From positions 4,241-68,240 of the forward strand of contig JAFUFH010000036.1 of the NCBI GenBank assembly GCA_017470005.1: a DNA stretch of 64,000 nt, read 5' to 3'. Below the pieces are notes generated by a model, which did not search any database, had not been told where the DNA came from, and saw nothing but the letters and a program-made list of their open reading frames with translations. Source of the stretch: Bacilli bacterium (GTDB lineage: Bacteria; Bacillota_I; Bacilli_A; RFN20; CAG-288). This document shows positions 7,903-33,600 of the stretch, piece after piece; position 1 is the first letter of the stretch; each line of letters begins with the position of its first letter. The position numbers and the translations under genes were made by a program.

Positions 7903-8111
7903 GCCTATTATTTTACCACTCTATACCTATATTTTGGGAGAAAAGACACATCCTTCTACACAAACAAGGATTGAAATAAATCTAAATGAAGGGATAAACA
8001 AAACACACCAAAAACAAATAGAAAACAAAATGTAATCGCTATCATTCTTGTTTTTGAGCGATTTAAAAATATTTTCTTGTTTTTTTCCACCATTCCTATA
8101 AAATATTAGCG

Positions 8112-8393
8112 AAAAGCACTGACGAGGAAGAGTACCTCAGCACCAACTGATAGAGAGTTCCGGACGGTGGAAGCGGAACAGTCAGGACTGAGCGAACATG
8201 GCCTCTGAGCAGAAACAGCGAAATCATAGTAGCTGTTTACGGGTATGCCCGTTATAGCAAATGAGTTTAGACGATTGAACTCTCCAAGGTCAAATAGGTG
8301 ACTATTTGATGAATTAAGGTGGTAACACGGGACAATATTGGGTCTCGTCCTTAACTGAAAACCAATGGTTCAGTTTTGGGCGAGACCTTTTTC
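8112..8393 (+). promoter_or_regulatory. T-box leader (probable Met specifier) with intrinsic terminator
   Basis: An AGAGA / GGTGGAA stem-I-like segment is present. The T-box sequence AATTAAGGTGGTAACACGGG lies at ~8311..8330. A terminator (GGTCTCGTCC...GGGCGAGACC plus a T-run) lies at 8341..8392. An ATG triplet at 8198..8200 sits in the presumed specifier region. The element lies immediately upstream of metN. Confidence 0.8.
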
Positions 8394-8415
8394 TTTTCTT
8401 GCCCTGGAGGTATGT

Positions 8416-16006: not shown

Positions 16007-16025
16007 TTTCCTATATCACTAAAAT

Positions 16026-16057
16026 AAGATGGCCTCGAATAGAAGCCATCTTTTTTC
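16026..16057. terminator. Bidirectional terminator between fruK and the convergent epimerase gene
   Basis: AAGATGGC...GCCATCTT stem with T-runs on both strands. Confidence 0.7.
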
Positions 16058-16062
16058 TTTTC

Positions 16063-16938
16063 TTAATTATCAACCTCAATTTTATAACTGAAGTTGTAAA
16101 TATCATTTGGAGGAAGTATATGAATACCTTTCTTCTTAGAAATCTCTCTTTCCGGTTGAACATAATCCGGAATTCCGTTCCAAGGTTCAATCGCAAGATA
16201 ATCACTCCACTGTCTATCAGACCAAAGAGCAAGATAATCGCTGTGATTCGAATACAGAGAGAGTATAGACCCATCTGTTTTATGAAGCGTGATTTTATCG
16301 ATATCTTTTCCCAAAAGAATAATTGTATTAATCTCATTAAATAATTCTTTAGAAATATCGATTCTATCCGTATCTAAGTAGGGAATTTCTTCAATATTGA
16401 AAGAAAAAGTCTCTTCTTGTAAAAGTCTTCTCAGCTTCATTTTGTGGTCAAAAGTAATATAGTTTCCTGAGATATCGAAATAATTATCTTTCTTTTCGCC
16501 AGGAACTTTAAAGGCGGGGTGTCCTCCCACCATAAAAGGCATATCTACAGGAGATAGATTTTGAATCTCATAACGAACAGTCAGACTTTTATTCTCTAAA
16601 TGATAATATGCTTTTGCGCTCCACTGAAATGGATAGCGAGTCTGCGTTTCTTCGTTAGAACGGAAGGAAATAACAATATCTCCATTGATAATATTTTCTT
16701 CTCCCATCATATAACGAATTAAGCCATGATTCTTAAATTCATATTCTTTTCCTTGATGTGTATACTTTCCACCTACTAATCTAGCAATAAAGGGAAAAAT
16801 AAATACATCCTGACCTTGCCAACCGTTTTCAACGGGTTGGTAAAGAAGCTCTACATTTCTTTTCTTATCATAAATAGAATGTAGGCATCCTCCTTTAGGA
16901 TTCGTTTCAACTGCTAAAAATTCATTTTCGATTCTCAT
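16063..16938 (-). CDS. Aldose 1-epimerase family protein (LacX-like)
   Basis: 291 aa with a GGHPAF motif and a mutarotase-like pattern. Confidence 0.75.
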   Translation of the reverse strand: MRIENEFLAVETNPKGGCLHSIYDKKRNVELLYQPVENGWQGQDVFIFPFIARLVGGKYTHQGKEYEFKNHGLIRYMMGEENIINGDIVISFRSNEETQTRYPFQWSAKAYYHLENKSLTVRYEIQNLSPVDMPFMVGGHPAFKVPGEKKDNYFDISGNYITFDHKMKLRRLLQEETFSFNIEEIPYLDTDRIDISKELFNEINTIILLGKDIDKITLHKTDGSILSLYSNHSDYLALWSDRQWSDYLAIEPWNGIPDYVQPEREISKKKGIHILPPNDIYNFSYKIEVDN

Positions 16939-16939
16939 A

Positions 16940-17887
16940 TCATCTTCCTCCCTTTGAAAGTTCCTTCTTAAATGTGGAATATTCTACATATTCAATGTCG
17001 GGGTTAATCTTTTTATAATCTAATTGCTTCACATCCTTTTGAGAAAGGACAACAATCTGTGTTTCTTTCAAATTCTTTGTGATCTTTGCCCCGCGAAAAT
17101 AGATCTCTTTTTTATGGTGGAGTAAATAGTCTAACTCTTCTGACAACACAATGTTATCAAAGAAAAATGTTTTCTCGTAAAAGAAAGGATTATAAAGATT
17201 ACTATTTGGTTTAACACCATCATTTTTCATCAGTTCACTCACTTTTTTAGCATGAGTGGCATGCGCTTGTTTTTGTCTTTTTCTTCTTGCGATAGTCTCC
17301 ACAAGAGTCATTGTATCATTTATGGATTGTGGATATTTTTTTAAGACTTGTTCGACAGTTAGTTGATTGCTATCTAACAGAGCTTTAAACACTTCCATCG
17401 TCATCAAAGCATCGTCATCAGAACGGTGGTAAGTGAAAGACTGAACCTGGTATTCTTCTACCAAATGATCTAATCCAGACAAATTCTTTCTTTGATTTAA
17501 TTGTTTTTCCATACTTTGAATATCAAAAAACTTAAAATCAATCAAAGGTAAATGATACCTTTGACAAGTGTAAGAGATATAAGACACATCTTGATTGACG
17601 GCAAAGCCAAAACAAATCGTATCTTTATCTTCTAATAAACGCTTGATTTCCTGGTAATAAGAAGGAAATGTGTGCGCCCACTTAAAACGGAAAAGAGGAT
17701 AAGCCAAATGGATTCCTTGACCTGTTTTTGCATTTCCTAAAAGGAAGGGCGCATTAGGATCAATCAGGATATCCTTCTTTTTAAGAACATGAAACTCTTC
17801 ATCGGTTTTTACATAACCGAGAGAACACATTTTTCCCTCTCCATTGAGGCAATTGGCACATTCTACATCGAAGAAAACATAAAACAT
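16940..17887 (-). CDS. DEDDh 3'-5' exonuclease with BRCT-like C-terminal region
   Basis: FFDVECAN (Exo I), a central D motif, and HRSDDDA (Exo III, H-x4-D). The C-terminal ~80 aa look BRCT-like. Confidence 0.6.
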   Translation of the reverse strand: MFYVFFDVECANCLNGEGKMCSLGYVKTDEEFHVLKKKDILIDPNAPFLLGNAKTGQGIHLAYPLFRFKWAHTFPSYYQEIKRLLEDKDTICFGFAVNQDVSYISYTCQRYHLPLIDFKFFDIQSMEKQLNQRKNLSGLDHLVEEYQVQSFTYHRSDDDALMTMEVFKALLDSNQLTVEQVLKKYPQSINDTMTLVETIARRKRQKQAHATHAKKVSELMKNDGVKPNSNLYNPFFYEKTFFFDNIVLSEELDYLLHHKKEIYFRGAKITKNLKETQIVVLSQKDVKQLDYKKINPDIEYVEYSTFKKELSKGGR

Positions 17888-17949
17888 ACAAACATATTGT
17901 GAGACAAGAATATCTTTTTTACAAGAAACTTTTTCTTTATAATGATGTC

Positions 17950-18609
17950 ATGAAAAAAGAAGAACTACTCAAAGGTATCAAAAATGTCATCTTCGACATG
18001 GATGGTACTCTCATCGACTCCTTAAGTATGTGGTCTGATATTGATGTCCGCTTCTTTCAAGAGCATCATATGGAAGTTCCCAAAGACTATGACAAAAGAA
18101 TTGCTCATATGAATTTTATGGAGATGGCTCAATTCACTAAGGATGAATATGGCTTTGAAGAAAGCGTAGAAGAAATTGCGTTCATGTGGACTACTTGGGC
18201 ACAAGAGGCATATGAGAAAACTTTGTTAGCTAAACCTGGAGCCAAAGAGTTCTTAGCCTATTGCAAAAGCAAAGGAATGCAAATCTCTTTAGCTACCACA
18301 AACAAAAGAGAACTATATGAGCCTTGCCTAGAAAATAACAATATGTGGCAATATTTTGACTTTTGCATGAATGTCAATGAGATAGGATCCACAAAATCAG
18401 AACCCAAGATTTATTTGTTATTAGCTGAAAAAATGGGGTCTAAGCCTGAAGAAACTATGGTATTTGAGGATATTCTTCAAGCAGTGAAAACAGCAAAAAA
18501 TGCAGGGTTTAAAGTCACGGCAGTTTACGATAAAAGAAATGAAGCTGATTTAGAAGAAATTCAAAATAATTGCGATTTCTTCCTAGAATCTTATGAGACA
18601 TTAGAATGA
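17950..18609 (+). CDS. HAD-superfamily hydrolase (beta-phosphoglucomutase-like subfamily IA)
   Basis: DMDGTLIDS motif I, a TTN motif, and a distal ED motif. The start is moved to MKKEELLKG. Confidence 0.8.
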   Translation: MKKEELLKGIKNVIFDMDGTLIDSLSMWSDIDVRFFQEHHMEVPKDYDKRIAHMNFMEMAQFTKDEYGFEESVEEIAFMWTTWAQEAYEKTLLAKPGAKEFLAYCKSKGMQISLATTNKRELYEPCLENNNMWQYFDFCMNVNEIGSTKSEPKIYLLLAEKMGSKPEETMVFEDILQAVKTAKNAGFKVTAVYDKRNEADLEEIQNNCDFFLESYETLE

Positions 18610-18630
18610 GAGAAATCTCATTCTTTTTTA
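18605..18630 (+). terminator. Rho-independent terminator after the HAD gene
   Basis: AATGAGA-GAAA-TCTCATT followed by a T-run. Confidence 0.7.
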
Positions 18631-18776
18631 GTGGTTTTTCCTATGATATTTCAAAAAATCATTTATTTACTTTATTAGGATTTTAAAAAGCCATTTACTG
18701 GTTCCTAAAAGACATAAATTAAGTAAATGACTTTTATATAGCAATTATTATACTTTTATTGTTTTTATTAAATTGG

Positions 18777-19619
18777 TTATAGACTATTCCACCCTTGATA
18801 AGCAGCTTCTAAAAGTTCTTTACTTGCTTGCCCTTGTTGGAAATACTCTTGCAAATCCGTTGAAGTGTTAGCTTTTTCGTCATAAACAAAGAGGGCATAA
18901 TTTCTTCCTTCTTTCGGCGAAAACTCAAAATCAGATAATTGTACATTTTGTTTCCACCACTTTTTATAATAATCGTTACTTAGCTTTTGATTTTTCATCA
19001 TCAAAAGGTGGGTGCTTTCTTTGGAATATAAGACTTCTCCATAGACAGCATATTCTTCTGAATGATAATTGTTATCAAATGGTTCGAATTCTTTCTCAAA
19101 TCCACAATAAGTATTTATCGCCTCTCGAATTAATCCGCTTTGTTTTTCTTCATATAGTTTAGAGTAAACATTGTATAAAGAACATTTAGTCTTATTATCG
19201 TATTCCAAGGAATATTCGTCACCTCCTATATAGAGTAGACTAAGCTTTTCATATCTTGGACTCACATAAAGATTAAATAGCGAGTAGATAGGGTCTGGTT
19301 TTTCTTCAGAAGGAGTCACACGAAAATCAATTCTTTCCATCACTTGCGGAAAGAGCGTCTCTGTTCCATCCATAGTACAAGTTTCGCAAGAATAAAGAAC
19401 ATTATGTCTTAATAATTCTTGATATTCTTTTCGATATTGTGTTACTGGCACCTCTACATAAGGAAGGTATTCGAAATTGAAACGGATATAATTCACATCT
19501 TCCACTTTTTCTTTATGAGTTCTGTTGATATATAAACCCAATCTTTCTCTTTTCATTCCATCCCCACAAGAAGAAAGGAGAAGTAATCCTAAAGATAATA
19601 AAATAACTGACTTTTTCAT
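18777..19619 (-). CDS. Hypothetical lipoprotein
   Basis: 280 aa with a signal peptide and lipobox LSSC. No family recognised. Confidence 0.6.
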   Translation of the reverse strand: MKKSVILLSLGLLLLSSCGDGMKRERLGLYINRTHKEKVEDVNYIRFNFEYLPYVEVPVTQYRKEYQELLRHNVLYSCETCTMDGTETLFPQVMERIDFRVTPSEEKPDPIYSLFNLYVSPRYEKLSLLYIGGDEYSLEYDNKTKCSLYNVYSKLYEEKQSGLIREAINTYCGFEKEFEPFDNNYHSEEYAVYGEVLYSKESTHLLMMKNQKLSNDYYKKWWKQNVQLSDFEFSPKEGRNYALFVYDEKANTSTDLQEYFQQGQASKELLEAAYQGWNSL

Positions 19620-19810
19620 AACTTTTTACACCAAACTGTGTCTTTCCCTCCTCTTTTTTTCTATATTATAAAATTTTTCAAAAAAAATAAACCTAAAGTT
19701 TTTCCATGATACACGGTGCTTCCATTTCTTGTTCTAATGTGAAATATCTTAATTCGTCCTTTTTTTCTTTATTTTAAATATTTAAATATATAAAATAGTA
19801 TAGCGAATTG

Positions 19811-19902
19811 TTCAGGGGAGTAGTTGGCAATCTATCATTCGTCAGCACGAGGGTTGAATAACCCTTCCGGATGATAGCCGCAAGCGGCAATGAGACCTGG
19901 AG
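19811..19902 (+). ncRNA. yybP-ykoY (Mn2+) riboswitch
   Basis: The 5' side reads CAGGGGAGTAG and the 3' side reads GGCAATGAGACCTGG. These match the two conserved halves of the yybP-ykoY motif (GGGGAGUAG ... AAGACC). The element ends 6 nt before the AAGGAG RBS of the ATPase gene. Confidence 0.85.
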
Positions 19903-19920
19903 ATAAAAAGGAGTTCATTC

Positions 19921-22719
19921 ATGAAACAGAATGAAAACGAACCTAAAAAGGTTCAAGAGGCTTTTCTTGCCCACGCAAAAACAATTGAAGAGGTCTGTGA
20001 AAAATACCAGACAGATCCCGAAAATGGTTTGAGCAGCGAAGAAGCCAAAAAACGTTTAGAGGAGTACGGTCTCAACAAACTCCAAGAGGGAAAGAAAGTT
20101 CCCTTCATCATCAAATTGCTCAAGCAATTCATTGAGCCGATGGTCATCGTCTTATTGATTGCAGCTGCAATCTCCATGGTCATCTTCTTAGTCAACGTCA
20201 TCTTCCTAAAACAAGCATCAGATGAATGGATTGACGCCATTGTCATCATGGCAATCGTCATCATCAACGCCTTCATTGGCGCCATTCAGGAGCAAAAAGC
20301 GGAGCAATCCTTAGAAGCTCTTAAGAAGCTCTCCACTCCGATGTGCACCGTGAAAAGAGATGGCAAAATCTACACCATCAAGAGCGAAGAAATTGTTCCC
20401 GGTGACTTAGTTGTCTTAGAAGAAGGTGCCATCATTCCTGCCGACTTAAGACTTGTCACTTCTGTCGATATCAAGAGTGATGAATCTTCTCTCACGGGAG
20501 AATCTGTCCCTGTCGAAAAGGATGCTAATGTTGTCTTAGCGGAAGAAACAACTACCGCCGATAAGCACAACATCGCCTATTCTTCTTGCCCTATCTCTTA
20601 TGGTCGCGGTACTGGTATTGCCGTAGGAACCGGAATGAATACAGAGGTTGGTAAGATTGCTGATATGTTGACCAATTCTGAAGATGAGGAAACTCCTCTT
20701 CAAAAGAAATTAGCTGTTTTATCCAAACAACTCGGTTTAATTTGTCTCATCATTGTTATTGTCACCTTCTTAGCTGGTATGGTTTGGACTCTCATCCGTG
20801 TTGGTATGAACAATTGGGATTGGTCTAACTTTGGTAAGAACACCCTTGAATTATTTGAAGAAGCTATCGCCTTAGCGGTTGCCGCTATTCCTGAAGGCCT
20901 CTCCGCTATCGTCACCATCGCCTTAGCCTTAGGTGTTGGTAAGATGGTCAAAGTGAACACGATTGTTAGAAAGCTTCCTTCCGTTGAAACATTAGGCTCT
21001 GTCACCGTTGTTTGTTCCGATAAAACCGGTACTTTGACTCAAAATAGAATGACCGTTAAAAAGGTCTATATCAACGACACCATCTATGATGCGGATAAAG
21101 CTGGTGATGCCGCTATCTTCTTAGCTACAGGTATGATGCTCTGTTCTAACGCTTCTATCTCTGGAGATAGATACGGAGATCCTACCGAAATTGCCTTATT
21201 AGATTACGCATATACCTTCGGTATTGAAAAAGAAAAGACCGAAGCTGAATCTCAACCTCGTATCGATGAACTTCCCTTTGATTCCGTCAGAAAGATGATG
21301 TCTGTGGAAAACACAAGAGAAGGAAAGAAAATCATCTATACCAAAGGTGCCTTAGATTCTATTCTCAAACACACCGAATTCATCCAAATCGGTGATGAGG
21401 TTAGACCCATCACCCCTGAAGATATCGAAAGAATCAACAACGCCAGTAAAGAAATGGCTTCTCAAGCCTTCCGTGTCTTAGCCTTCGCTTACCGTTATCA
21501 CGAAGATGAAGAAAGAATGAGCGAAGAACACTTAGTTTATGTCGGTATGGTCGGTATGATCGACCCCGAGAGAGCAGAAGCTGCTCCTGCGGTTGCCACA
21601 TTCAAGAGAGCGGGTATCCGCACCGTCATGATCACTGGTGACCACAAAGATACCGCCTTTGCTATCGCAAAGAACTTAGGTATTGCCGATTCTATTGAAC
21701 AATGCTGTTCTTCCGATGAATTGAATGGTTTAAGCGAAGAACAACTTCGTGAAAAAGTCAAATACACCAATGTCTTCTCTCGTGTTTCTCCTGAAAACAA
21801 AGTTCAAATTGTTAAAGCCTTAAAAGCCAACGGAAACATCTGTTCCATGACTGGTGATGGCGTCAATGACGCTCCTTCTCTTAGAGCTGCCGATATCGGT
21901 ATCGCTATGGGTATCACCGGCACGGATGTTGCTAAGAGTGCTGCCGATATGGTCTTAACCGATGATAACTTCGCTTCCATTGAAAAAGCAGTGGAAGAAG
22001 GTAGAGGTATCTATGCCAACGTGAAGAAATCTATCTTCTACCTCTTATCTTCTAACTTCGGTGAAGTCTTAGTCATGTTCTTTACCTTATTGATCGGTTT
22101 GCCTTCTCCTCTTGCTACCCTTCACATTCTCTGGATCAATTTGATCACAGACTCTCTTCCTGCTATTGCCTTATCCATGGATGCCAAAGAAAAAGGTATC
22201 ATGGATCAAAAACCTAAAGATCCAAAAGATGGCGTTTTCGCCCATGGTGGATTCAAATTCACTTTAGGATACGGTATTGTTATCTTTATCATCACCATCA
22301 TTGCGTACTTCTTACCTACTTTCTATGGAGATTTGGCTTCTGCGGATCTCTGGGCAAACGGTATCTTCGGTCTCGCTGAAAAATTAGAAGCCAACAATGT
22401 CCTCTACATCGAATGTCAGACTTCCGCTTTCACTGTACTTGCTATGGCTCAAATCTTCCATATGGTTGGTATGACCGATATCAAGAGAAGCTTCTTACAC
22501 GTCTTCAAAGACGGCAACTGGATGCTTCTTGTCTCCTTCGTTTTAGGCTTCGCTCTCCAACTCGTTGTCACTGAAGTTCCTTTCTTCAACGATGTCTTCA
22601 AGACCAGCCACCTCAGTTGGGATTATTGGTTGATCTTAGCTGCTATGGCTAGTGCACCTCTCATCTTACACGAAATCTTAGCTCCTATCTTCAGAAAGAG
22701 AAAAGTCGAAATCATTTAG
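19921..22719 (+). CDS. P2-type cation-transporting ATPase (Ca2+/Mn2+ pump-like)
   Basis: 932 aa with DKTGTLT, TGDGVNDAP, and a 10-TM P2A/PMCA-like layout including an N-terminal cation-ATPase-N segment. Confidence 0.9.
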   Translation: MKQNENEPKKVQEAFLAHAKTIEEVCEKYQTDPENGLSSEEAKKRLEEYGLNKLQEGKKVPFIIKLLKQFIEPMVIVLLIAAAISMVIFLVNVIFLKQASDEWIDAIVIMAIVIINAFIGAIQEQKAEQSLEALKKLSTPMCTVKRDGKIYTIKSEEIVPGDLVVLEEGAIIPADLRLVTSVDIKSDESSLTGESVPVEKDANVVLAEETTTADKHNIAYSSCPISYGRGTGIAVGTGMNTEVGKIADMLTNSEDEETPLQKKLAVLSKQLGLICLIIVIVTFLAGMVWTLIRVGMNNWDWSNFGKNTLELFEEAIALAVAAIPEGLSAIVTIALALGVGKMVKVNTIVRKLPSVETLGSVTVVCSDKTGTLTQNRMTVKKVYINDTIYDADKAGDAAIFLATGMMLCSNASISGDRYGDPTEIALLDYAYTFGIEKEKTEAESQPRIDELPFDSVRKMMSVENTREGKKIIYTKGALDSILKHTEFIQIGDEVRPITPEDIERINNASKEMASQAFRVLAFAYRYHEDEERMSEEHLVYVGMVGMIDPERAEAAPAVATFKRAGIRTVMITGDHKDTAFAIAKNLGIADSIEQCCSSDELNGLSEEQLREKVKYTNVFSRVSPENKVQIVKALKANGNICSMTGDGVNDAPSLRAADIGIAMGITGTDVAKSAADMVLTDDNFASIEKAVEEGRGIYANVKKSIFYLLSSNFGEVLVMFFTLLIGLPSPLATLHILWINLITDSLPAIALSMDAKEKGIMDQKPKDPKDGVFAHGGFKFTLGYGIVIFIITIIAYFLPTFYGDLASADLWANGIFGLAEKLEANNVLYIECQTSAFTVLAMAQIFHMVGMTDIKRSFLHVFKDGNWMLLVSFVLGFALQLVVTEVPFFNDVFKTSHLSWDYWLILAAMASAPLILHEILAPIFRKRKVEII

Positions 22720-22729
22720 AAATAGAAAT

Positions 22730-22766
22730 GGCGATATCCCACAAACCTGGGAATATCGCCTTTTTT
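22730..22766. terminator. Bidirectional terminator between the convergent ATPase gene and the giant-protein operon
   Basis: GGCGATATCCC...GGGAATATCGCC followed by TTTTTT on the plus strand and a U-rich tract on the minus strand. Confidence 0.8.
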
Positions 22767-22772
22767 GATGCT

Positions 22773-25700
22773 CTAGGATTTTCTTACAATACGCTTTGTC
22801 ATACGGATGAGCGCTTGTTGTTCTAAGAAGAGAACAAACAAAGCAATGTAATCCATGAGTCTTTCTTTGTCTAAGAATTGATTCATCTCAGGAAGAGAGA
22901 AGTCTTTCAGTGTTTTCTTAAGATAATCGCTGTATCGATAGCTTTGCGTCGCGTTGATAGAAGAAATGACGAAGTCTTTATCTTTGTGATATTCATAAAG
23001 AAGAGCTTCTCTGACAAAGAAGAGCACTTCTGGAGAGATTGCCGTTCCTGTATACAAGTCAATAAATTGATCGACATAATAGGAATAAACACCCTCAGAA
23101 GCTTGAACAAATGCTTTCACTTCCTCTTTTGGCTCATGAACATAAACCAAATTCGTCATTATCTTTTGATGAGCTTTTCTTACATCCTGACTGAGCTCTT
23201 GATAGGACAACAAAGAAGGAACAAGAAGTTTGCTGTTCAAGAAGAGGAACAAACCATTTCTAGCGGTAAGATTGGTCAACTGTGAAGAGAAAAACACCGC
23301 AGAAAAAATATTCTTTTCCAAACAGAATTGACTTCTAAAAGTAGGGAAGGCCTTCATATCATATTCGTCTTCTGTAAACGGAATTGCGTCTTTTAATTCT
23401 TTTAACGTGATTTCTTTCTTTTTATAGACTAAGTTATAAATTGCCTCATACATCACTTGAGGAACACCGATATGAGCGATAAGACGTAACGCTTTGCTCT
23501 TATTTCCTTCATAGGATAAAGAACAAGATTGCATAAACCCATTGATAGCCAAAAGAAGAGCTTCTTGGTCCGCGTTCATAAAATAGAACTTTTTGCCGCT
23601 CTTAGAAAAGGCGTAGAACCGTTCTCCAGGGGCGACATATAATTTGTTCCCTTCATATTCTGTCGTGAAATAAGAAACAAACGCACTCTTATCTTTAATA
23701 CAAAATGCTTCTTCATAAAGAGTTTGATATACTGCGCTTTCATACTCTCCTACGTATCCAAGAGCAAAGTTGTGGAAGGCTTGTCCATCCTCATTTAAAT
23801 CTACAAATTCTTGGTCCATAGCGCATACTTCGTGGAAGGTTTGCGAAGAATAGCCACAAAGCTCTCCAATCTGCACGCAATCACGCTTGAGTTTCTTTTC
23901 TTCCTCTTTAAACATTTGAACTTTGATGGCAATATCGGAAAGAGGAACAGAAAATCTTGGATCATTCGTAGAGAAAGCGTTGTAATATAACGGTCTCGAA
24001 TTGTTGCTCTTTCCCATCAAATAAATTTTCTTTTCAAATGCTTTTCTCATCACCAAGTAATAAGAAAGAGAAGGATCCTTTTGGAGAAGAGTTCTATGGT
24101 CTTCTCGGTCTAATAAAGAAATATTCTTTTTAAATATGTCTTCATCCACAACCAAACGATTAGAAATCGTCATCGAGTCTCCTTCTGTAGGGACTCCGAT
24201 GAAGTGAGCAAGATGGCCACCTTCTTGTTCTACTTTTCCTTCAAAGATCATTTCCCTTCCAAATAAGGGCATAAAGAAATGAATTCTATCTTCTGAAAAC
24301 GCCTCTGCTGAATAAGCATCAAAGAATAATCCCATTAGATATTCGATGTTTTCTCTATCTTTTTCATCAAAATAGATAGGACCGTCGATCGTTTCTTTAT
24401 AACCGATGAAATTTCTTCCTTTCACAACATATGGAAGAGGTAAATAAGGATCAAAGAAGATTTCACCAGAGTCTACCTGACTCATCAAATGTTCCTTTTC
24501 GTTTCTTTGTATCTTTTTTAATTCTGCTTGTGCTTTGCCGTCAAACGTGGAAACAATCGCACAATTAATTAAAATTCTTAAGACAGGAGGAATGATATCC
24601 ATCTTGGAACAAACTTCTTTTAACGCTTCGTTGCAGGTATATCCTTCCATCATCAAAGAGAAGATATCATGTACACAAAGTAACACTCCATTCTCTTCAT
24701 TTGTTAATAACAATGATTTTAACTGGGGAAGATAAGGTAGAGTAGAGTTGGTGATGATAGCTTGTTGTTCAATCAATTCAACTGCAGATCGATAATAAGA
24801 GATATCTCCATTAAAAATGGGATAGAATTCTTTATTTGTGACTTCACAATCACAAATGAAATCTGGGAAGCTAGGAGTAATAAAGGAAAAAGCTTCCTGG
24901 AAATATAAATCTTTACCTTCTTTGGCTTTCACATAGAAAGAGATCGCATCCATCTCATTCATATTGCGAAGAGAATACTGCCCACCATATAAATCTAATA
25001 CCGGTAAAAGCAATCCAATCTTTCGATAATTCACGCCTTGGATATATTCAAATAAAGAGGCAAAGTCCTCTCCATCTCCTTCTTCAAAATCGAAATATTT
25101 TGCTTGTTGGAAAGCGGGATAAGGAAGACCCATCAATTTCATAAAAAGGGATGGTAATTTGGCACAATTTGGATGTTTTTGAATATATTTTTTTACCGCT
25201 TTATAAGAGTAAATGATACCTTTTTTATCTTGGCTATCAAAAACAAAATGAGTGGGTTGTACTTTCTGAACTACTTCATTATCTATTTTCTCAAAGAAAC
25301 GAGATTCTAAAGCGTACATATTAAATCTCGCTCCAAGATAAACGAAACGATTCTGTAAAAAGAAGGTTTCATAATCTTGATCTAATACCGTGAATCCAAA
25401 AAGACCACGAATAGAGAACATCTTTCGATAATAATCGTTCAACAAACGCTTGATCAAAGCTAAGAAATATCTTCTTAAACACAGAATAGCTTCCAATTCT
25501 GCTCCGTTGTATTCTTTGTTTTTCTTACCGAAGGCTTTGACAAATTTTTCTTGCAAACTCAATTGATCTAAAGGTTTGTAATACGTCAAGAAAACGTCTT
25601 TATCCACCTCTAAAGGAGCGCTGCAAAAGTCCATCAAAAGTTTATCTGATGTTTCTTCTTCTAAGAGAAGCTCGGCTGGAATCTTTTCTGGGTCGATATA

Positions 25701-26234
25701 AATTGGATAGATAAGACCATCATCTAAACTAAGGACATTAAAGATGCATTCTGGTTCTAAGACATAAAATCCATTTTCAATCAAATAATTGATGGCACCA
25801 ATCACAGAAGGGTGGTTTTCTTCTAAAACTCGTATCGGATTGTCTGGTAATCGGAAAGAAGGATTTTTTAAATTCTCTTCAAAATGAATGTTGTAAAGAA
25901 TCTCATCAAAAGTAAGAGGCGTATTTCCTTTTTTGTCTTTTCGAATCATGCATTCTAAAGGAAGGCCTAAACACTGTCTAAAAATCTCTGTCGTCATGAC
26001 AGAATCGATCATCAGACCTAATTTTTTCGTATAAATAGGATACTTTTCTTTAGAAATATATAGTTCATAAAAACGAAATCTCTCTAAAAGGGAGGCTTTG
26101 TCTTCTATGGCCATATGATAATCGCCCTCACCGTTAGAATACACGGTATAAAAGGGGCCTTGGATTTCATATTTATAAGGACTATCGACAGACAATATGG
26201 TCTTGGTAGTGAAAAACTCTGCATTGTATTCCAT
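22773..26234 (-). CDS. Giant hypothetical protein B (1153 aa), paralog of the upstream 1133-aa protein
   Basis: A long uninterrupted ORF with RBS GGGAGG 7 nt upstream. No signal peptide or TM helix is apparent. It shares colinear motifs with protein A (LGLP, CLRRYFLALIKRLLNDYY vs VLRQYLSALINLLYDQY, LMGLPYPAF vs LLGLPYPGY). Confidence 0.85.
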   Translation of the reverse strand: MEYNAEFFTTKTILSVDSPYKYEIQGPFYTVYSNGEGDYHMAIEDKASLLERFRFYELYISKEKYPIYTKKLGLMIDSVMTTEIFRQCLGLPLECMIRKDKKGNTPLTFDEILYNIHFEENLKNPSFRLPDNPIRVLEENHPSVIGAINYLIENGFYVLEPECIFNVLSLDDGLIYPIYIDPEKIPAELLLEEETSDKLLMDFCSAPLEVDKDVFLTYYKPLDQLSLQEKFVKAFGKKNKEYNGAELEAILCLRRYFLALIKRLLNDYYRKMFSIRGLFGFTVLDQDYETFFLQNRFVYLGARFNMYALESRFFEKIDNEVVQKVQPTHFVFDSQDKKGIIYSYKAVKKYIQKHPNCAKLPSLFMKLMGLPYPAFQQAKYFDFEEGDGEDFASLFEYIQGVNYRKIGLLLPVLDLYGGQYSLRNMNEMDAISFYVKAKEGKDLYFQEAFSFITPSFPDFICDCEVTNKEFYPIFNGDISYYRSAVELIEQQAIITNSTLPYLPQLKSLLLTNEENGVLLCVHDIFSLMMEGYTCNEALKEVCSKMDIIPPVLRILINCAIVSTFDGKAQAELKKIQRNEKEHLMSQVDSGEIFFDPYLPLPYVVKGRNFIGYKETIDGPIYFDEKDRENIEYLMGLFFDAYSAEAFSEDRIHFFMPLFGREMIFEGKVEQEGGHLAHFIGVPTEGDSMTISNRLVVDEDIFKKNISLLDREDHRTLLQKDPSLSYYLVMRKAFEKKIYLMGKSNNSRPLYYNAFSTNDPRFSVPLSDIAIKVQMFKEEEKKLKRDCVQIGELCGYSSQTFHEVCAMDQEFVDLNEDGQAFHNFALGYVGEYESAVYQTLYEEAFCIKDKSAFVSYFTTEYEGNKLYVAPGERFYAFSKSGKKFYFMNADQEALLLAINGFMQSCSLSYEGNKSKALRLIAHIGVPQVMYEAIYNLVYKKKEITLKELKDAIPFTEDEYDMKAFPTFRSQFCLEKNIFSAVFFSSQLTNLTARNGLFLFLNSKLLVPSLLSYQELSQDVRKAHQKIMTNLVYVHEPKEEVKAFVQASEGVYSYYVDQFIDLYTGTAISPEVLFFVREALLYEYHKDKDFVISSINATQSYRYSDYLKKTLKDFSLPEMNQFLDKERLMDYIALFVLFLEQQALIRMTKRIVRKS

Positions 26235-26240
26235 ATTTGC

Positions 26241-29200
26241 TTACCTCCCTATATGACTTTCTTTAATCGCATAGCGATGAATCAGTTTCTGAACAAGATA
26301 AGTAATAAATCCTAAGATACTTTGGGCGGTAGAAGAGATATATCCCGCTCGGACCCTCTCTATCTCAGGGAAATGTTTTTGAACGCTCTGTAAAAGGGTA
26401 TCTTCTGAATTTAAATCAAACAAGAAATTCAAAATACACTTGTTCTCTCTAGAATACGTATCCAATATGACCGAGGAAGCATAAGCGACACTTTCTACTT
26501 TCTCCATATTGATTTGTCCAAATTCTGTTAGCCACTCTCTTAACTGATCCTTAGAAGGAGTAAAGAAAGTGAATAACACTTCAGGTATCGTAGAAGAAGC
26601 GTAATCAAAATAAGGAAGCAATCCATCACCATATCCGTCTAAATCATAATTGTGTCTAGGATGATATTTGATATCAATTAGAGCATAATCACTCAAAATC
26701 TTAAATTGATCATGAACCATGCCGTTTAAAGCAAAATCATAATCCGCGGATAAATCTTCTTTGAACGGAAATGCTTTTCTAAAAGGCTCATCATAAGCGG
26801 AGTGATTGATAGAGGTGCATCTTCTACAAATAGAATCTCTAAATTGAATCTTTTCAAAGAGATCTTCAATACTTCCTACAGACAAGTCATAGTCTTTATA
26901 CTTCAATATGGCTAAATAAGGGAAACCAATCAACCCTAAAATAATGGGAGTCTCATATTCTTTTGCCATATTGCGTTGATTATATAAAGAATCAAATCTC
27001 GTGGCGAAATCTAACATAGGTTTCTTATCACACTGACAGAAATAAAGATCATCCGAATAAATATCGGAAGTATAAGCGTTAAAGATTGTACCTAAAATGA
27101 TATAGGGATAAGGAAGTCTTGGATTGTAATCAAAGTTGAGACAGAATTCGTTTGCGTTTTCCGGAACAATGTGTCTTGAGACATAGACAGAGTAGGCAAT
27201 CTCAACCATCTTATAGATATACACCAAACGTGTAAATATCATCATATGCTTGTAAATAACTGGATATAATGATTCGTTACAATCAAATAAGATACGATAT
27301 AAATCTCCGTTATCTGCCAGTTCAGCAAACGAGATTGCCTGTTCATAGAAGTCATCATAGGAAATCTCATTAGGGAAGAAGGCGGCAATGAGAGATAACA
27401 TCATCTTTTTATCCACATGGATATAAGGATAGAGAATCGGGTCTACTTTTTGAATGTCAAAAGAGAGAACGGAAGTATAAGTTCCGTCCGCTAATTTTCC
27501 AAAGAAAGCACCAAAATCATAATCTAAAGACATCGGTTCATCAAAATATACGCCTCTTTCACTCGCTTTGGCACGAATATAGGACATATAAATGTTATAT
27601 GGTTCCGCTTCATTAGAGTCGATCTTCTCATGGATGGAAGGAGAGGAGTTCATGCAAAGATGACAAATATGATGTTTATACGGAATTTGAGAGCTGATAT
27701 CTTTTGTTGTTGTCAATTTGGAGGAGAGGTTCTCGGGTAATCCAAGATTTTGAATGATATATCCTCTCTTTGCTATCACGCTATCTTCTTTGGGATGATG
27801 CCTTTCATAAAGGTCTCCCAAGTATTGAATTTTAGATTCGATAGCACTCTTTTGACAAGAGCAGACATAAGGTTGAGAGAAGTAGCCTTCTCTAAAGGAA
27901 TACGCGAGTTGTCCAAAGCTGACATACGGATAAGGAAGGTTAGGTTCAAAGGACTCGTTATATTTGGTCGGACGATCTAACGCCATCAAAGAGAGGGTAT
28001 CTTTGTTTTCAATCAGAATGATTCGATATTCTCTTTCCGCCACCAAAACAGGATAAGTTAACACATAATAGAAGAAATCTAAGAATCTCTCATCCTTATA
28101 TTGTTGTAAATCATAAGTGACAAGCATCAAATCGATAGCGCGATCTAAAGAGATATCCACAAAACTGTGGTAGAAATAATACAGAGCTTGATTCTTAGAT
28201 TTTGAATCAATTTCTCTTAGTTTCTTTTCTAATTTCTCGTCTTCTAACAATCCTCTATCTAAAAGATAGGTCGGATATAATTCCTCGACAAAAGACATTC
28301 TCTTTTTATCAAAGAGAGAGGCTAAAGATTCACACCTCTTCTTCTTTCTAAAAGTCAAAGAGACCTTATTTTCTTTGTCTTCGATCAACAATGGCTTTTC
28401 ACAAGAATATTGAACGCCATTATCCAACAAGAAACGAAGCATGAACGCATATTGATGTTCTTGTTCTCCGGATAAATAAGAATAGAAAACATCATAACGC
28501 TTTGCGGATAAATAAATTTCACTATTGGTAATAGAGAAAGAGAAAGGAAGAGAATTGACGATATCCTCTACGGTAAAGGTTTCTAAATGCTTTACAAATT
28601 TATATCCAGGATAAGGAAGGCCTAACAAAGAATAGATGGTTAAGATATCTCCACCCGGTTCTTTTTCCATCGCATCTGCAACCAATTCAGTAATCTTTCC
28701 TTTATCCATGGTAGAAAAATACCATTTCTCTTTATCTAAAGAAAACATATCCGCATTAAAAGAGGATAAAGTATATAAATCTCTTTCAATATGAATCTTA
28801 GAAATAGACATAAAGGAAAGCTTTGCGGTCACTTTATTCAATACTTCAAAAGAATATTGATCGTATAAAAGATTGATCAGGGCAGATAAGTATTGGCGAA
28901 GAACATAAGCGTATCTTCTCTTAAACGGAAGGCCAACAGGGATGGAAGCTAATTCCATATCGTAATCATCGTTGACAAAATAGGAGAGTCTTCTATCGAA
29001 AGAATAACCATCAAACTTCTTCATATCTGCGATGAATTGTTTATCCGCTTTAGATCCCAAAAAATCGATAGAGAATCTTTCACTTCTCGCTTCTTTATAT
29101 CGTTCCATCAACTCAGGAGAAAGCATGGATTCCTCTACAAAAACAGGGACGCTCTTCTCATTTCTTTCCATGAAGGGCTTTGTTTCATCATAAAGGAAGA

Positions 29201-29642
29201 AGAAACCTTTCTTCAAACAATATAATTTAAAATCATCCGTATACCATTTACGATTTAGTTTCTGATACAAAAGAATATAAGATTCTCGTTTTAAATCAGA
29301 AAGTGAAGAATCAAAATGAAGTTGTGTGATGATCTCTTGGCTCAAATCCAAACGTTCAAAAAGAGCATCGGGTAATCCCAATACCTGTTTGAGGACTTCA
29401 TTATCTTGGCTTTCTTTCTCATCAAAGGTGTTTCCGTTAGTAACGGTATACGTTTTACGATTCAATATTCTTTCTTTATAGAAACGAAGCGCACTTTCTA
29501 TGCTATCTTTGTCATCTAAAGAGAGAACAATGTCATCTTTATTGTCTAAAAAAGCCACATGAAACATGCCGAAGAGAGCTTGTCGATAATCTGCACGAAA
29601 ACTGATATTCAGTTTTCTGTTTTTATATAATTGATAACCCAT
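26241..29642 (-). CDS. Giant hypothetical protein A (1133 aa) with internal duplicated Cys-motif module
   Basis: A long ORF whose ATG overlaps the upstream stop by 1 nt (TAATG). No signal peptide is apparent. The repeated motif series is described in the findings. Confidence 0.85.
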   Translation of the reverse strand: MGYQLYKNRKLNISFRADYRQALFGMFHVAFLDNKDDIVLSLDDKDSIESALRFYKERILNRKTYTVTNGNTFDEKESQDNEVLKQVLGLPDALFERLDLSQEIITQLHFDSSLSDLKRESYILLYQKLNRKWYTDDFKLYCLKKGFFFLYDETKPFMERNEKSVPVFVEESMLSPELMERYKEARSERFSIDFLGSKADKQFIADMKKFDGYSFDRRLSYFVNDDYDMELASIPVGLPFKRRYAYVLRQYLSALINLLYDQYSFEVLNKVTAKLSFMSISKIHIERDLYTLSSFNADMFSLDKEKWYFSTMDKGKITELVADAMEKEPGGDILTIYSLLGLPYPGYKFVKHLETFTVEDIVNSLPFSFSITNSEIYLSAKRYDVFYSYLSGEQEHQYAFMLRFLLDNGVQYSCEKPLLIEDKENKVSLTFRKKKRCESLASLFDKKRMSFVEELYPTYLLDRGLLEDEKLEKKLREIDSKSKNQALYYFYHSFVDISLDRAIDLMLVTYDLQQYKDERFLDFFYYVLTYPVLVAEREYRIILIENKDTLSLMALDRPTKYNESFEPNLPYPYVSFGQLAYSFREGYFSQPYVCSCQKSAIESKIQYLGDLYERHHPKEDSVIAKRGYIIQNLGLPENLSSKLTTTKDISSQIPYKHHICHLCMNSSPSIHEKIDSNEAEPYNIYMSYIRAKASERGVYFDEPMSLDYDFGAFFGKLADGTYTSVLSFDIQKVDPILYPYIHVDKKMMLSLIAAFFPNEISYDDFYEQAISFAELADNGDLYRILFDCNESLYPVIYKHMMIFTRLVYIYKMVEIAYSVYVSRHIVPENANEFCLNFDYNPRLPYPYIILGTIFNAYTSDIYSDDLYFCQCDKKPMLDFATRFDSLYNQRNMAKEYETPIILGLIGFPYLAILKYKDYDLSVGSIEDLFEKIQFRDSICRRCTSINHSAYDEPFRKAFPFKEDLSADYDFALNGMVHDQFKILSDYALIDIKYHPRHNYDLDGYGDGLLPYFDYASSTIPEVLFTFFTPSKDQLREWLTEFGQINMEKVESVAYASSVILDTYSRENKCILNFLFDLNSEDTLLQSVQKHFPEIERVRAGYISSTAQSILGFITYLVQKLIHRYAIKESHIGR

Positions 29643-31252
29643 TAGAATTCCGCAAATTTAAGCACGCAATCATTACTAGAAATCGAATCTACTTTGAAAC
29701 CATATTTTGGTTTATTTCCATCATCAAAGACAAAGTTTGGGTAGGATTCATGGTTAAAAGTAGAATTCAATCTGTATAAAGAATTTGTTCCTGAGAATGT
29801 TCCACCATTGATTCTCTTTCCTGTAGCAGGAAGCAAAGAAATCAATCTTCCACGATAGAAAGACATATCCGTATCATCTAAAGCTTGTTCCCAAGAATAA
29901 GACTTCGTATTGTTATAAAGATAGGTGTATGCATAACTGGTTCCCCACTCACTAGAATAAGGGGGTAATTTATCATAAGCATTACCATCCCAGACCGTTC
30001 CGCTTCTTGTTGCCACTAATTTTCCTACGGTTGCATTGACGTGATAGAGAAGTACACCCACCGTAGAATAAGTGGAAAGTCCATTAGAATATTTGTGAGT
30101 AGAATCACTGTAATTTAACCCAGTTGGTGTGTAATATTCCATGATCAAATATTCATCAAATGCGGTGTTGTTATACACCATATTAGAAGAATGATAAATC
30201 GGTAAAATAAAGCAGTTTCCTGTCTCCGTTTGAGACTTCAAAGTTAAAGTATAATCATTTGCTGCCAAATATTCTTCGGTAATAATGGTTGGCTTCACCC
30301 AATCTAAAAGATATTTAGAGAAAGCACAATGATCTCCAATATTGAAGTCCATCATATCCACACCACCCATAGGAGTATCCAAGCATTTATCTACTCCGCT
30401 AGGTTCATAATCGTAAGAATAATAATCATCTAAACCTAACATATGGCCTGTTTCATGGATGAAGGTGTGAGCATCAGCGCTCTCTTCCTGCTTTCTAAAA
30501 TATCCAGCATAGTCATATTCTGTTAAGAAATCGACACTAGCCCAGGCATATAAACAAGCATGTTTTCCATCATAAGTGTTTTTCGTATAAGGAGCCCAAG
30601 TAGTGAAAGCCCAATATAACTCACTATCTCTTTGATATGGAGGAGCATAAACTAGCCACACCGCATCAATATAGCCGTCTGCATCCGTATCATATTGAGA
30701 TAAATCCATTTTACTGGCCAAAGAAGTAAGGACTTTATCTAATAAATCTGCAGTATAAACAGCAGCTCCATCCGTAACCTTCTTCGTCTCTTGTTCAAAT
30801 GCTTTTGCGGTCTTATTAATGGTAAAAACAGGAGCTACTTCACCAGAGAGATGAAGCTTGTCAAAGGAAGACTTCTCATAATAAGAAGCAACAGATTCCC
30901 ATCCCGTTTTATCCGAGTTTCCAAAGAACGCATTTTCAATCATGGTCAATTGAGAAGAGGTAAAGGAATAATCTAAAGTCGCGATAGGAACAACAAGAAT
31001 CTTTGAATCACCTGTTGTCGGAAGATATCTGTATCCCATACCTAAGCCGAGATTCTTGTTATTGAGATTTGCACTAGAATAGTTTGATCCATATTTTGGG
31101 GTTCCATAAGTGACATATTCTTTACTTCCGGTATCGTTATAACTGGATTGTTCAAAAATCCCTAAAATATCAAACAAACTAAAGTTGCACGACGTTAGTG
31201 TCGTCAATAATAAGAAGCTAGCAATAGTAGTAAACAGTTTCTTCTTATGCAT
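29642..31252 (-). CDS. Lipoprotein zinc metalloprotease, M6 (immune inhibitor A)-like
   Basis: 536 aa with a signal peptide and lipobox LTSC. The motif HETGHMLGLDDYY fits the HExxHxxGLxDxY pattern of the M6 domain. The subfamily call is tentative. Confidence 0.7.
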   Translation of the reverse strand: MHKKKLFTTIASFLLLTTLTSCNFSLFDILGIFEQSSYNDTGSKEYVTYGTPKYGSNYSSANLNNKNLGLGMGYRYLPTTGDSKILVVPIATLDYSFTSSQLTMIENAFFGNSDKTGWESVASYYEKSSFDKLHLSGEVAPVFTINKTAKAFEQETKKVTDGAAVYTADLLDKVLTSLASKMDLSQYDTDADGYIDAVWLVYAPPYQRDSELYWAFTTWAPYTKNTYDGKHACLYAWASVDFLTEYDYAGYFRKQEESADAHTFIHETGHMLGLDDYYSYDYEPSGVDKCLDTPMGGVDMMDFNIGDHCAFSKYLLDWVKPTIITEEYLAANDYTLTLKSQTETGNCFILPIYHSSNMVYNNTAFDEYLIMEYYTPTGLNYSDSTHKYSNGLSTYSTVGVLLYHVNATVGKLVATRSGTVWDGNAYDKLPPYSSEWGTSYAYTYLYNNTKSYSWEQALDDTDMSFYRGRLISLLPATGKRINGGTFSGTNSLYRLNSTFNHESYPNFVFDDGNKPKYGFKVDSISSNDCVLKFAEF

Positions 31253-31254
31253 GT

Positions 31255-31599
31255 TTAGTCTCCGTAATCTGATCCTCTAGATTCTCTTTCAATGATGCAT
31301 CCGACCTTATCTGCAACATCCATCGCGGTTAAATAGATGGCATCGTGTGCGTCAACTAAGGGATTATCCTCCATTCCGACGAACACAACCTTCTTGTTAG
31401 CACGAGTTACTCTGTCCATTTCTTTTAAGAGATCATCGTATCTTTCTGGTCTTAACATCTTATATCCTTGAAGATAAGTATAGAACTGGGGTTCGATATA
31501 GAAAATAGAACCATCATCGTTTTGATAACAAGTCGCAAAGCGGTTTTTTAAATCGATTAATATCTTCTTATCTTCCCATTCGGGGTATTTTGTTGGCAT
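31255..31599 (-). CDS. Hypothetical protein (114 aa)
   Basis: The ORF has an AAGGAAGG RBS and ends 2 nt before the protease gene start. No family recognised. Confidence 0.6.
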   Translation of the reverse strand: MPTKYPEWEDKKILIDLKNRFATCYQNDDGSIFYIEPQFYTYLQGYKMLRPERYDDLLKEMDRVTRANKKVVFVGMEDNPLVDAHDAIYLTAMDVADKVGCIIERESRGSDYGD

Positions 31600-31622: not shown

Positions 31623-31631
31623 ATTATAACA
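31623..31631 (-). promoter_or_regulatory. Extended -10 promoter element (TGTTATAAT) ahead of the 114-aa gene
   Basis: The minus strand reads TGTTATAAT ~24 nt upstream of the ATG at 31599. The -35 is weak (TTAGAG at 17-nt spacing). Confidence 0.45.
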
Positions 31632-31685
31632 CTTATAATATTTAACTCTAACGGATGATAACAAATTGAGCAACAGGAGACTTTT

Positions 31686-32051
31686 TTATTTCAAGAAACT
31701 ACGTGCTAAAGAAATGGTTTTAGAAATCCACAAATAGTCGTTTCTTAATGACTCCATTTTAATCTCTTCTCTTGCTTTTAAAGAGATATCAGAGAGTTTT
31801 TCTAATGCACTTTTCACTTCGTTTTTCTCTCCATCTAAGAAGGCATAGATCTCTTTTTTGCCTTCATCGATAGCTTTTCTTGAATTTTCATATTGGAAAG
31901 CATCACTGAATGGTTTCTTCCCGTTCTGTTTTCTTTCGACCAATTTAATAAGCATTTCAATAGCAGGTAAGGTGGAAAGAACATAAGCGTAGGCGTCTCT
32001 TTCTTTGAGAGGAACCTTCTTAATCTTCCCAATATATTCTTCGTGTTTCAT
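31686..32051 (-). CDS. Hypothetical helical protein (121 aa)
   Basis: The ORF starts 2 nt after the upstream stop. It has a Lys/Glu-rich helical character and no recognised family. Confidence 0.55.
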   Translation of the reverse strand: MKHEEYIGKIKKVPLKERDAYAYVLSTLPAIEMLIKLVERKQNGKKPFSDAFQYENSRKAIDEGKKEIYAFLDGEKNEVKSALEKLSDISLKAREEIKMESLRNDYLWISKTISLARSFLK

Positions 32052-32053
32052 AA

Positions 32054-32530
32054 TTAGGCTCCTTTTCTAATGTTGGTCAACACTTCGTTTTCTGCTCTAG
32101 CAAATTCGGGAGGTAAATCCTCTCTGTTTTCAAAGATAACCAAAGTCTCTTTTAAGATAGCAACTAAGAAGTCTACATCCATGCGAAGTTTTTCTACATG
32201 TTGCTTTAATCCGGCATCACGAACCAAAGCAATCAGTTGATTCATATCCTCTAACCAAGAAGCATAATCATATAAGATATTGATTGCTTCTTTCCATTCC
32301 TCTTCAAAGAAGGCTTCTTCCTTCTTAGAGAGTTCAAAGAGGCGCGGATCCTCATCAAACAACTTTAAAACGTTTTCTTTCAAATGTGGGAATGCTTTTT
32401 CAAAATCTACTGTATTTAACTCAATTTCACACAACACATCATACAAAGATAACAAACAGGATGAACCACAAAAATAAGGGCTATCTGCTGCGCTGAGCAA
32501 TTCTAATTTTTCTTGTAATTTTTCTTTCAT
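32054..32530 (-). CDS. Hypothetical helical protein (158 aa)
   Basis: The ORF start overlaps the sirtuin stop (ATGA). No family recognised. Confidence 0.55.
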   Translation of the reverse strand: MKEKLQEKLELLSAADSPYFCGSSCLLSLYDVLCEIELNTVDFEKAFPHLKENVLKLFDEDPRLFELSKKEEAFFEEEWKEAINILYDYASWLEDMNQLIALVRDAGLKQHVEKLRMDVDFLVAILKETLVIFENREDLPPEFARAENEVLTNIRKGA

Positions 32531-33558: not shown

Positions 33559-33600
33559 CAAAAATGGGTGTCAGAATGGCTCTGACACCCAATATTTTTT
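33559..33600. terminator. Terminator after por (works on both strands)
   Basis: GGGTGTCAGA-ATGGC-TCTGACACCC flanked by an A-run on one side and a T-run on the other. Confidence 0.8.

Follow-up and report, generated by a model that had tools for sequence, protein, structure and literature searches.

Two giant paralogous proteins in a conserved operon of uncultured Bacilli and their relation to a four-cysteine module of mobile-element proteins

The window analysed here is a stretch of 64,000 nucleotides (nt) from the metagenome-assembled genome (MAG) of a Bacilli bacterium (GenBank assembly GCA_017470005.1, contig JAFUFH010000036.1, positions 4,241 to 68,240 of the forward strand), and positions below are those of the window. 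It carries four tightly packed minus-strand genes for a protein of 114 amino acids (aa), p114, an M6-like lipoprotein and two giant proteins, gA and gB, which an initial annotation made from the letters of the DNA alone had described as diverged homologues of no recognisable family. Our results showed that gA and gB are ancient full-length paralogues and that their family is undescribed at the level of sequence and of fold. We propose, with low confidence (a probability of about 0.4), that p114, gA and gB constitute a lineage-restricted native gene set for a nucleic-acid-binding cytoplasmic complex. On re-reading of the list of open reading frames (ORFs), the four genes lay exactly where the initial annotation had placed them:

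31255..31599, minus strand: p114, ORF of 114 aa
29642..31252, minus strand: M6-like lipoprotein, ORF of 536 aa
26241..29642, minus strand: gA, ORF of 1133 aa
22773..26234, minus strand: gB, ORF of 1153 aa

Library scans covered all seven proteins from the sirtuin upstream of these genes to gB. p114, gA and gB had no match at E <= 1 in Pfam, NCBIfam, PADLOC or PHROGs, and the Pfam and NCBIfam scans detected neither RHS/YD repeats nor a toxin domain (E <= 1) nor any catalytic signature in the giants. Family profiles were generated from 33 sequences for gA, 22 for gB and 16 for p114, and a comparison of PDB sequences with these three profiles gave nothing significant. AlphaFold2 models built on the family alignments were compact single bodies with no long coiled coils, both for gA (pLDDT 90.4, pTM 0.79) and for gB (pLDDT 84.3, pTM 0.83). 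With the full-length models as Foldseek queries, neither gA (PDB and BFVD) nor gB (PDB) had a match (best E 0.7-1.4); the queries were multi-domain, and small zinc domains may be missed by them. The claim that the giants belong to no recognisable family was thus upheld by sequence libraries, PDB profiles and full-length structural models alike. Between the two giants themselves, BLASTP detected only a weak similarity (E 4e-6, 21% identity) restricted to the N-terminal 400 aa. Comparison of the gA family with the gB family by hhalign, in turn, gave E 1.1e-45 across 1039 columns, end to end, and the homology that had been proposed from shared motifs is therefore unambiguous paralogy over the full length.

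Homology was also found within each giant. Four segments of gA, termed N1, N2, M1 and M2, are mutually homologous by hhalign (M1-M2, E 1.4e-18; N1-M1, 7e-12; N2-M2, 2.8e-8). Aligned with each other, the N- and C-terminal halves match across some 390-430 columns, helical linker included, with E-values of 2.1e-11 in gA, 4.3e-7 in gB and 2.6e-17 for the N-terminal half of gA against the C-terminal half of gB. The homology of the halves and the module repeats together indicate that each giant arose by tandem duplication of a module-linker-module unit. As read from these alignments, each giant is made up of two units of ~560 aa and four modules of ~100-150 aa, and the gene pair is a further duplication that brings the number of modules to eight. 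The modules of gA are the following:

29172..29609, minus strand: module N1, aa ~12-157, no cysteines, aligned to M1 by hhalign
28413..28835, minus strand: module N2, aa ~270-410, no cysteines, aligned to M2 by hhalign
27528..27965, minus strand: module M1, aa ~560-705, metal site C594/C596/C660/C663 and invariant H661
26688..27140, minus strand: module M2, aa ~835-985, metal site C869/C871/C939/C942

The module is of alpha/beta type, with a four-strand beta meander followed by a long helix, a helix-'LGLP'-helix element, a CxC...CHxC metal knuckle, and a terminal helix and strand. Among the 33 gA sequences, the cysteines of M1 (C594, C596, C660 and C663) are kept in 31, 22, 31 and 30, respectively, and those of M2 (C869, C871, C939 and C942) in 33, 32, 32 and 29. 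The two intact Cys4 sites of gA could hold zinc or an iron-sulfur (Fe-S) cluster. In gB, the M2 profile found four sites that represent degenerate modules (aa ~20-121, 294-402, 595-648 and 866-953), and not one cysteine is conserved in the gB family. The invariant polar residues of gA are H28, D136, E153, T154, K381, R382 and H661. Its most conserved motif, KWYxDDFKLYCLxxGFFF, looks structural and not catalytic, as it coincides in the alignment with the terminal helix and strand found in the other modules and in the short proteins described below (YGWYI...G). p114 was considered as a cryptic copy of the module and was rejected as such (hhalign E 0.4).

The gA profile was run as an exhaustive hidden Markov model (HMM) search through 1.84 billion representatives and had 237 hits. 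The full-length matches were of gA type or gB type only, and about 70 shorter proteins (150-670 aa) matched only profile positions ~560-710. When 53 of the short proteins were aligned, no columns but those of four cysteines were invariant, and this quartet is present in gA M1 and M2 and lost in N1, N2 and gB. Detection is reciprocal, since a profile of the short proteins matches M1 (iE 2.7e-26) and M2 (iE 1.9e-12). A C-terminal domain with the pattern LELDIY...G[IV]EYQG.QH...WGG was observed in 37 of 65 short proteins, and its motif is a PD-(D/E)xK-like signature as judged from the sequence. One short protein is called 'PDDEXK family nuclease' by NCBI, another gives a weak match to DUF2726, and further fusion partners include TerB_N, CpXC and HRDC. 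No Pfam or NCBIfam model covers the module region of the short proteins, and PDB sequences showed no significant similarity to the profiles of these proteins or of the nuclease-like domain.

The genomic surroundings of five short module proteins were inspected, and all five sit in phages, in elements resembling integrative and conjugative elements (ICEs) or in other integrase-bearing elements. The gene immediately precedes that for the terminase small subunit in two cases, a prophage of Clostridium algidicarnis and Clostridium phage phiCT19406A (gp29). The Alicyclobacillus protein is encoded within an ICE-like element with TraG, SSB and primase, others adjoin integrases in integrase islands, and that of a Methanoplasma archaeon stands beside a ResIII helicase. 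No p114-like ORF adjoins the short module proteins. A larger relative, a two-module protein of 580 aa from Erysipelotrichales/Bacilli MAGs, aligns to gA 564-982 (E 4.6e-26), and in both contigs examined its gene is followed by one for a Schlafen-group-3/DUF2075 helicase. The nuclease-like C-terminal domain was also seen without the Cys4 module in many phages of Streptococcus thermophilus, Clostridioides and Bacillus. Those of S. thermophilus encode it within the first 1.4-2.2 kb of the record (e.g., Streptococcus phage P7151, 1890-2174), and all of these module-less phage proteins are annotated as hypothetical.

The distribution of the giants was scanned with one genome per GTDB species, which yielded 35 loci (numbered with L below). 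All of them are in uncultured gut, rumen or digester Bacilli, Candidatus Enterosoma among them, and the database entry for gA of the window reads hypothetical protein, from a 'Bacilli bacterium' MAG. Candidatus Enterosoma corresponds to GTDB UBA7642 in the order RFN20 and family CAG-288 (PMC8035907), and CAG-288 has been predicted to be peptidoglycan-deficient (PMC10868615); the host lineage is probably wall-less. Of the other RFN20 families, CAG-826 likewise counts as peptidoglycan-deficient, and CAG-449 and CAG-631 count as walled. Three loci, L011, L021 and L023, are deposited as Bacteroides uniformis, Alistipes onderdonkii and Oscillospiraceae, respectively, and are probably mis-binned contigs. 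The scan detected one locus in each species genome, at the same chromosomal site across the 35 species. The gene order SIR2-p158-p121-p114-M6-gA-gB is nearly universal, with PFOR usually upstream and a convergent P-type ATPase gene downstream. Identity to the window proteins decreases in the order p114 > M6 > gA > gB, and the values for these and two flanking genes are as follows:

p114: 47-79% (46-81% across the lineage), conserved better than the rest of the set and about as well as PFOR, SIR2 and the ATPase
M6-like lipoprotein: 44-58% (a further match of 25%, in L038, is distant from the operon)
gA: 31-55%
gB: 22-39%, the fastest-evolving gene of the set
PFOR: 71-86%
P-type ATPase: 64-74% (orthologous matches)

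In the related genomes, neither giant occurs without the other or without the 114-aa gene, which answers the earlier question of their co-occurrence, and p114-gA-gB is kept in every locus with enough sequence. The M6 gene is present in almost all loci and absent from the intact p114-gA-gB set of L040, where p114 stands directly upstream of gA, the three genes are spaced by 4-6 nt, and unrelated divergent genes lie upstream. In L032, p114-M6-gA-gB is likewise preceded by divergent genes and lacks the sirtuin block. The constant association with the sirtuin that had been considered did not hold, as no sirtuin adjoins the operon in L030, L032 or L040. The invariant core is therefore p114-gA-gB. 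Collectively, these data showed that the locus is native to the chromosome, vertically inherited and found only in RFN20-type Bacilli. The initial annotation had set a conserved association of unexplained proteins against simple lineage-specific housekeeping genes; the association proved to be conserved and the family is still unexplained, but the genes are indeed lineage-specific and vertically inherited.

The hint of a distinct, low-GC composition was not borne out. GC content and GC content at third codon positions (GC3) are 0.350 and 0.338 for gA and 0.355 and 0.335 for gB. The window's remaining 37 genes have medians of 0.365 and 0.344, and many ordinary genes are equally low. A scan of IMG/VR with two short peptide patterns returned no relative of the giants (plasmids were not searched), and with the native composition and the fixed site there was no indication of phage or plasmid cargo. 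A foreign island was ruled out by the native GC and GC3, the fixed synteny and the absence from IMG/VR. The lowest-GC block of the window is at 16000-20000 (GC 0.33), below the giants; it includes a 280-aa ORF (18777-19619, minus strand) with an N-terminal hydrophobic segment and no Pfam match. The richness of the giants in aromatic residues that had been noticed was confirmed, with Tyr and Phe making up 15% of each, compared to 7-8% in PFOR and the ATPase. Both giants are acidic (pI 5.2-5.3, net charge about -33), as is p114 (pI 4.8). No hydrophobic segment of transmembrane (TM) strength was found in either giant by a 19-residue Kyte-Doolittle scan (maxima 1.24 for gA and 1.55 for gB), in agreement with the earlier statement that they have no TM helix.

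The junctions of the four genes, read directly from the sequence, confirmed the tight packing first described. p114 and the M6 gene are separated by 2 nt (TAA-AC-ATG, with GGAGA within the end of p114), the M6 gene and gA overlap by 1 nt in a TAATG stop/start, and gA and gB are separated by 6 nt (GGGAGG-TAA-GCAAAT-ATG, with the ribosome-binding site (RBS) within gA). Two signals flank the operon:

31623..31664, minus strand: promoter-like region before p114, from consensus matches alone
22730..22766, no strand assigned: hairpin where the gB and P-type ATPase genes converge, with an A run on one side and a T-rich run on the other

The extended -10 element at 31631-31623 that had been pointed out is present (TGTTATAAT) and is followed by an RBS, AAGGAAGG, ahead of p114; a promoter scanner placed TTGTTA-18-TATTAT at 31664-31635. 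The p114 homologue of L032 and L040 is preceded by genes of the opposite strand, so that in these two loci the operon must have a promoter of its own. The hairpin (22730-22760), previously read as a bidirectional terminator, folds at -20.2 kcal/mol (z = -3.9), and none of 200 shuffles was equally stable; it is likely such a terminator. No regulatory RNA was found at the operon by the Rfam scan.

The 536-aa protein has a hydrophobic N-terminus, a lipobox (LTSC) and the sequence HETGH, which agrees with the HExxH motif of peptidase M6, and these features identify it, at the level of sequence, as an M6-like zinc metalloprotease lipoprotein with a signal peptide. Its match to PF05547 scored 29.9 bits (cutoff 22) and covered only profile positions 53-141 of 294, that to TIGR03296 (E 6.6e-25, 88.6 bits) was below the cutoff of 110.8, and no significant similarity to PDB sequences was detected. 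A 535-aa ORF at 60349-61956, considered as a second M6 paralogue, was rejected and is CTP synthase. The presence of a surface protease beside cytoplasmic giants had been regarded as odd; L040 shows that the protease is dispensable, so the mismatch of compartments needs no special explanation and the protease is read as a co-transcribed, separable neighbour.

With 335.7 bits for NF001752 (cutoff 221) and E 0.02 for Dsr1, the sirtuin is a CobB-type deacylase equivalogue. A functional link between it and the operon was rejected, given its housekeeping CobB type and its absence beside the operon in L030, L032 and L040, and on the same two grounds so was a SIR2-based defence system (Dsr1, SIR2-Argonaute and similar). 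Between the sirtuin and p114, two small lineage-specific proteins with no family match, p158 and p121, are encoded at 31686-32530 on the minus strand. The first of them, p158, is an acidic protein whose start shares a 4-nt overlap with the stop of the sirtuin gene, and the basic p121 follows p158 after a gap of 2 nt. Both are poorly conserved (25-45%) and absent from L032 and L040, and in L004 a single 237-aa ORF fills the interval, its C-terminal part matching p121 (35%) and no part matching p158. Between PFOR and SIR2, the window has only a terminator hairpin (33565-33591), and L001-L005 have two or three small zinc-ribbon proteins (PF13240), one of them also with TM2 (PF05154). In L001-L003, which represent one species (a UW_DM_BACIL1-type genome), genes for an AAA_21 ATPase and RloB lie directly downstream of gB (~17068-18925), in the position of the P-type ATPase; the pair looks like a defence-type insertion at the operon boundary.

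In our proposal, p114, gA and gB would form one compact cytoplasmic hetero-complex, with gB as a degenerate scaffold partner and p114 as a tightly constrained small subunit. A complex is suggested by the tandem paralogues, their tight coupling, their constant co-occurrence and the degeneracy of the fast-evolving partner, and the compact and confident models also count in its favour. The module would recognise nucleic acid, probably DNA, because it is repeatedly partnered with nucleases and helicases, and the giants may be a nuclease-less, multivalent scaffold for nucleic-acid binding or surveillance. Reduced-genome, probably wall-less gut bacteria may have kept them as a housekeeping factor. 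The M6-like surface lipoprotein, translationally coupled but separable, would stand outside this mechanism. A bolder form of the proposal, which we consider doubtful, is that p114-gA-gB is a large new cytoplasmic machine restricted to the RFN20-type gut Bacilli that were seen to carry it. Its eight modules would share a metal-binding fold that the PDB lacks and would have been domesticated from the domain with which phage and ICE nucleases target DNA. The machine would perform an essential job in genome maintenance or surveillance that replaces a function lost in genome reduction, and the module would be a new class of DNA recognition common in packaging-associated nucleases of phages.

Several points weigh against the proposed complex. 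Complex formation and nucleic-acid binding are both inferred, and the module may instead serve to bind proteins or act as a sensor. The operon encodes no nuclease, helicase or other nucleic-acid enzyme, and the nuclease domain, when sought in the gA and gB families, was found in neither (hhalign E 0.25 and 0.32). Metal ligands are lost in six of the eight modules of the pair, and, unlike the acidic giants, the short module proteins have a median pI of 7.8 and range from neutral to basic. Furthermore, synteny among relatives this close, with PFOR at 76-86%, is expected from vertical descent alone, and functional linkage is proven only where the neighbourhood has changed, as in L032 and L040.

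Other explanations account for part of the same evidence. The housekeeping-like vertical inheritance would fit a novel enzyme, metabolic or macromolecule-modifying, in which the metal sites and invariant polar residues of gA are active sites and gB is a pseudo-enzyme. The many invariant polar residues of gA, its two conserved Cys4 sites lost in gB and the large, compact, globular models agree with this, but the structural look of its top motif and the absence of a catalytic signature (Pfam, NCBIfam) and of a fold match (Foldseek) make it unlikely. We give somewhat less credit to a chromosomally fixed system against phages or mobile elements, in which invading DNA or proteins would be detected by the array of modules and the response carried out by an effector not recognised as such, the protease or one of the giants. 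Such a role is brought to mind by the fused PD-(D/E)xK nuclease and adjacent SLFN-g3/DUF2075 helicase of the module relatives, by a weak HEPN neighbour and a SNIPE/T5orf172 island near them, by the fast evolution of gB and by the AAA_21 and RloB genes inserted right after it in L001-L003. Defence systems, however, are typically patchy in distribution, and here a single fixed-site locus of native composition is present per species genome in 35 species, no effector is recognisable, and p114 is conserved like core metabolic genes. In addition, PADLOC-DB 2.0 gave no matches for p114, M6, gA and gB and only noise-level ones (E > 0.005) for p158 and the sirtuin.

The tight junctions lend themselves to a different grouping, in which all four genes are one unit with the surface M6 protease and, for example, the giants and p114 control how the lipoprotein matures, is exported or acts. 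Gaps of 2 nt and 6 nt, together with the TAATG overlap, point to translational coupling, and the M6 gene stands between p114 and gA in almost all loci; yet L040 keeps p114-gA-gB without it, the predicted compartments differ, and mixed-function operons are common in reduced genomes. We consider this improbable, and quite as improbable a structural or cytoskeletal element of wall-less cells with a role analogous to that of the lineage-specific giant proteins of Mycoplasma and Spiroplasma. The latter would suit large, aromatic-rich, lineage-specific, tandem-encoded proteins of a lineage that includes CAG-288, predicted to be without peptidoglycan (PMC8035907, PMC10868615). The models, however, each show one compact body (pTM about 0.8) and are free of long coiled coils, the giants have no TM segment or signal peptide, and no homology to any such giant protein was detected in Pfam, PDB profiles or Foldseek searches.

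Lineage-specific giant ORFs are not rare in MAGs in themselves, and what is new here is a protein family and fold, not a demonstrated mechanism. If our proposal is correct, the operon would stand for about 7 kb of conserved and entirely unexplained coding capacity (~0.35-0.5% of a genome of 1.5-2 Mb) in a gut and rumen lineage that is uncultured, its 114-aa partner being constrained like core metabolic enzymes. The module would then be a new metal-binding domain, one that neither Pfam nor NCBIfam models and that has no relative in the PDB, and a candidate for DNA recognition. The locus would also document stepwise growth from a single module to a two-module unit, a four-module giant and a paralogous pair with progressive loss of metal sites, and the takeover of a mobile-element domain into a conserved chromosomal operon. 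The module recurs in phage and ICE nucleases, including those of isolated Clostridium and Staphylococcus phages, among them an SPbeta-like phage of Staphylococcus, and is experimentally tractable.

Elsewhere in the window, the sole Rfam match is a T-box leader (RF00230, 125.7 bits, E 1.9e-27) at 8110-8355 on the plus strand, immediately upstream of an ORF at 8365-9396, and no tRNA genes were found in the window. A 1039-aa glycoside hydrolase family 3 protein at 40269-43388 on the minus strand has permuted Pfam domains, with the GH3 C-terminal domain at aa 89-343, the Fn3-like domain at 454-529 and the GH3 N-terminal domain at 743-929.

Compared to peptidase family M6 of the immune inhibitor A type, the 536-aa lipoprotein shares the HExxH zincin motif and differs in its partial Pfam profile, its score below the NCBIfam cutoff, its short lipoprotein form and the lack of a PDB sequence relative. 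Mollicute-type cytoskeletal or surface giant proteins are marked by a signal peptide or TM anchor, or by an extended coiled-coil or fibrous build, features that gA and gB do not have.

The closest known relatives of the giants are the single-module Cys4 and PD-(D/E)xK proteins of phages and other mobile genetic elements, such as phiCT19406A gp29 (AJA42719.1), WP_206658083.1 of Alicyclobacillus mengziensis ('PDDEXK family nuclease') and WP_216111822.1 of Clostridium algidicarnis. They share with the giants a module of ~140 aa, the invariant CxC...CxxC and motifs of the LP.P.V, LGLP and F[KR]D.[IL]CH.C types. In contrast to the giants, they have one module instead of four, carry a C-terminal nuclease domain that the giants lack, are neutral to basic and not acidic, and are encoded on phages, an ICE-like element and other integrase-bearing elements; apart from the named WP_206658083.1, all are annotated as hypothetical, and none has been characterised. 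In cos phages, terminase-adjacent HNH endonucleases occupy the position directly upstream of the small terminase gene. The single-module nuclease relatives, though not the giants, share this terminase-adjacent position, with a fold that is PD-(D/E)xK-like and not HNH. The two-module proteins of 580 aa (e.g., MEA4822224.1) are half the size of the giants and have no tandem paralogue and no p114, and a helicase gene follows in both contigs examined. In architecture, they correspond to one half of a giant, with a module, a helical linker and a second module, and both Cys4 sites are kept.

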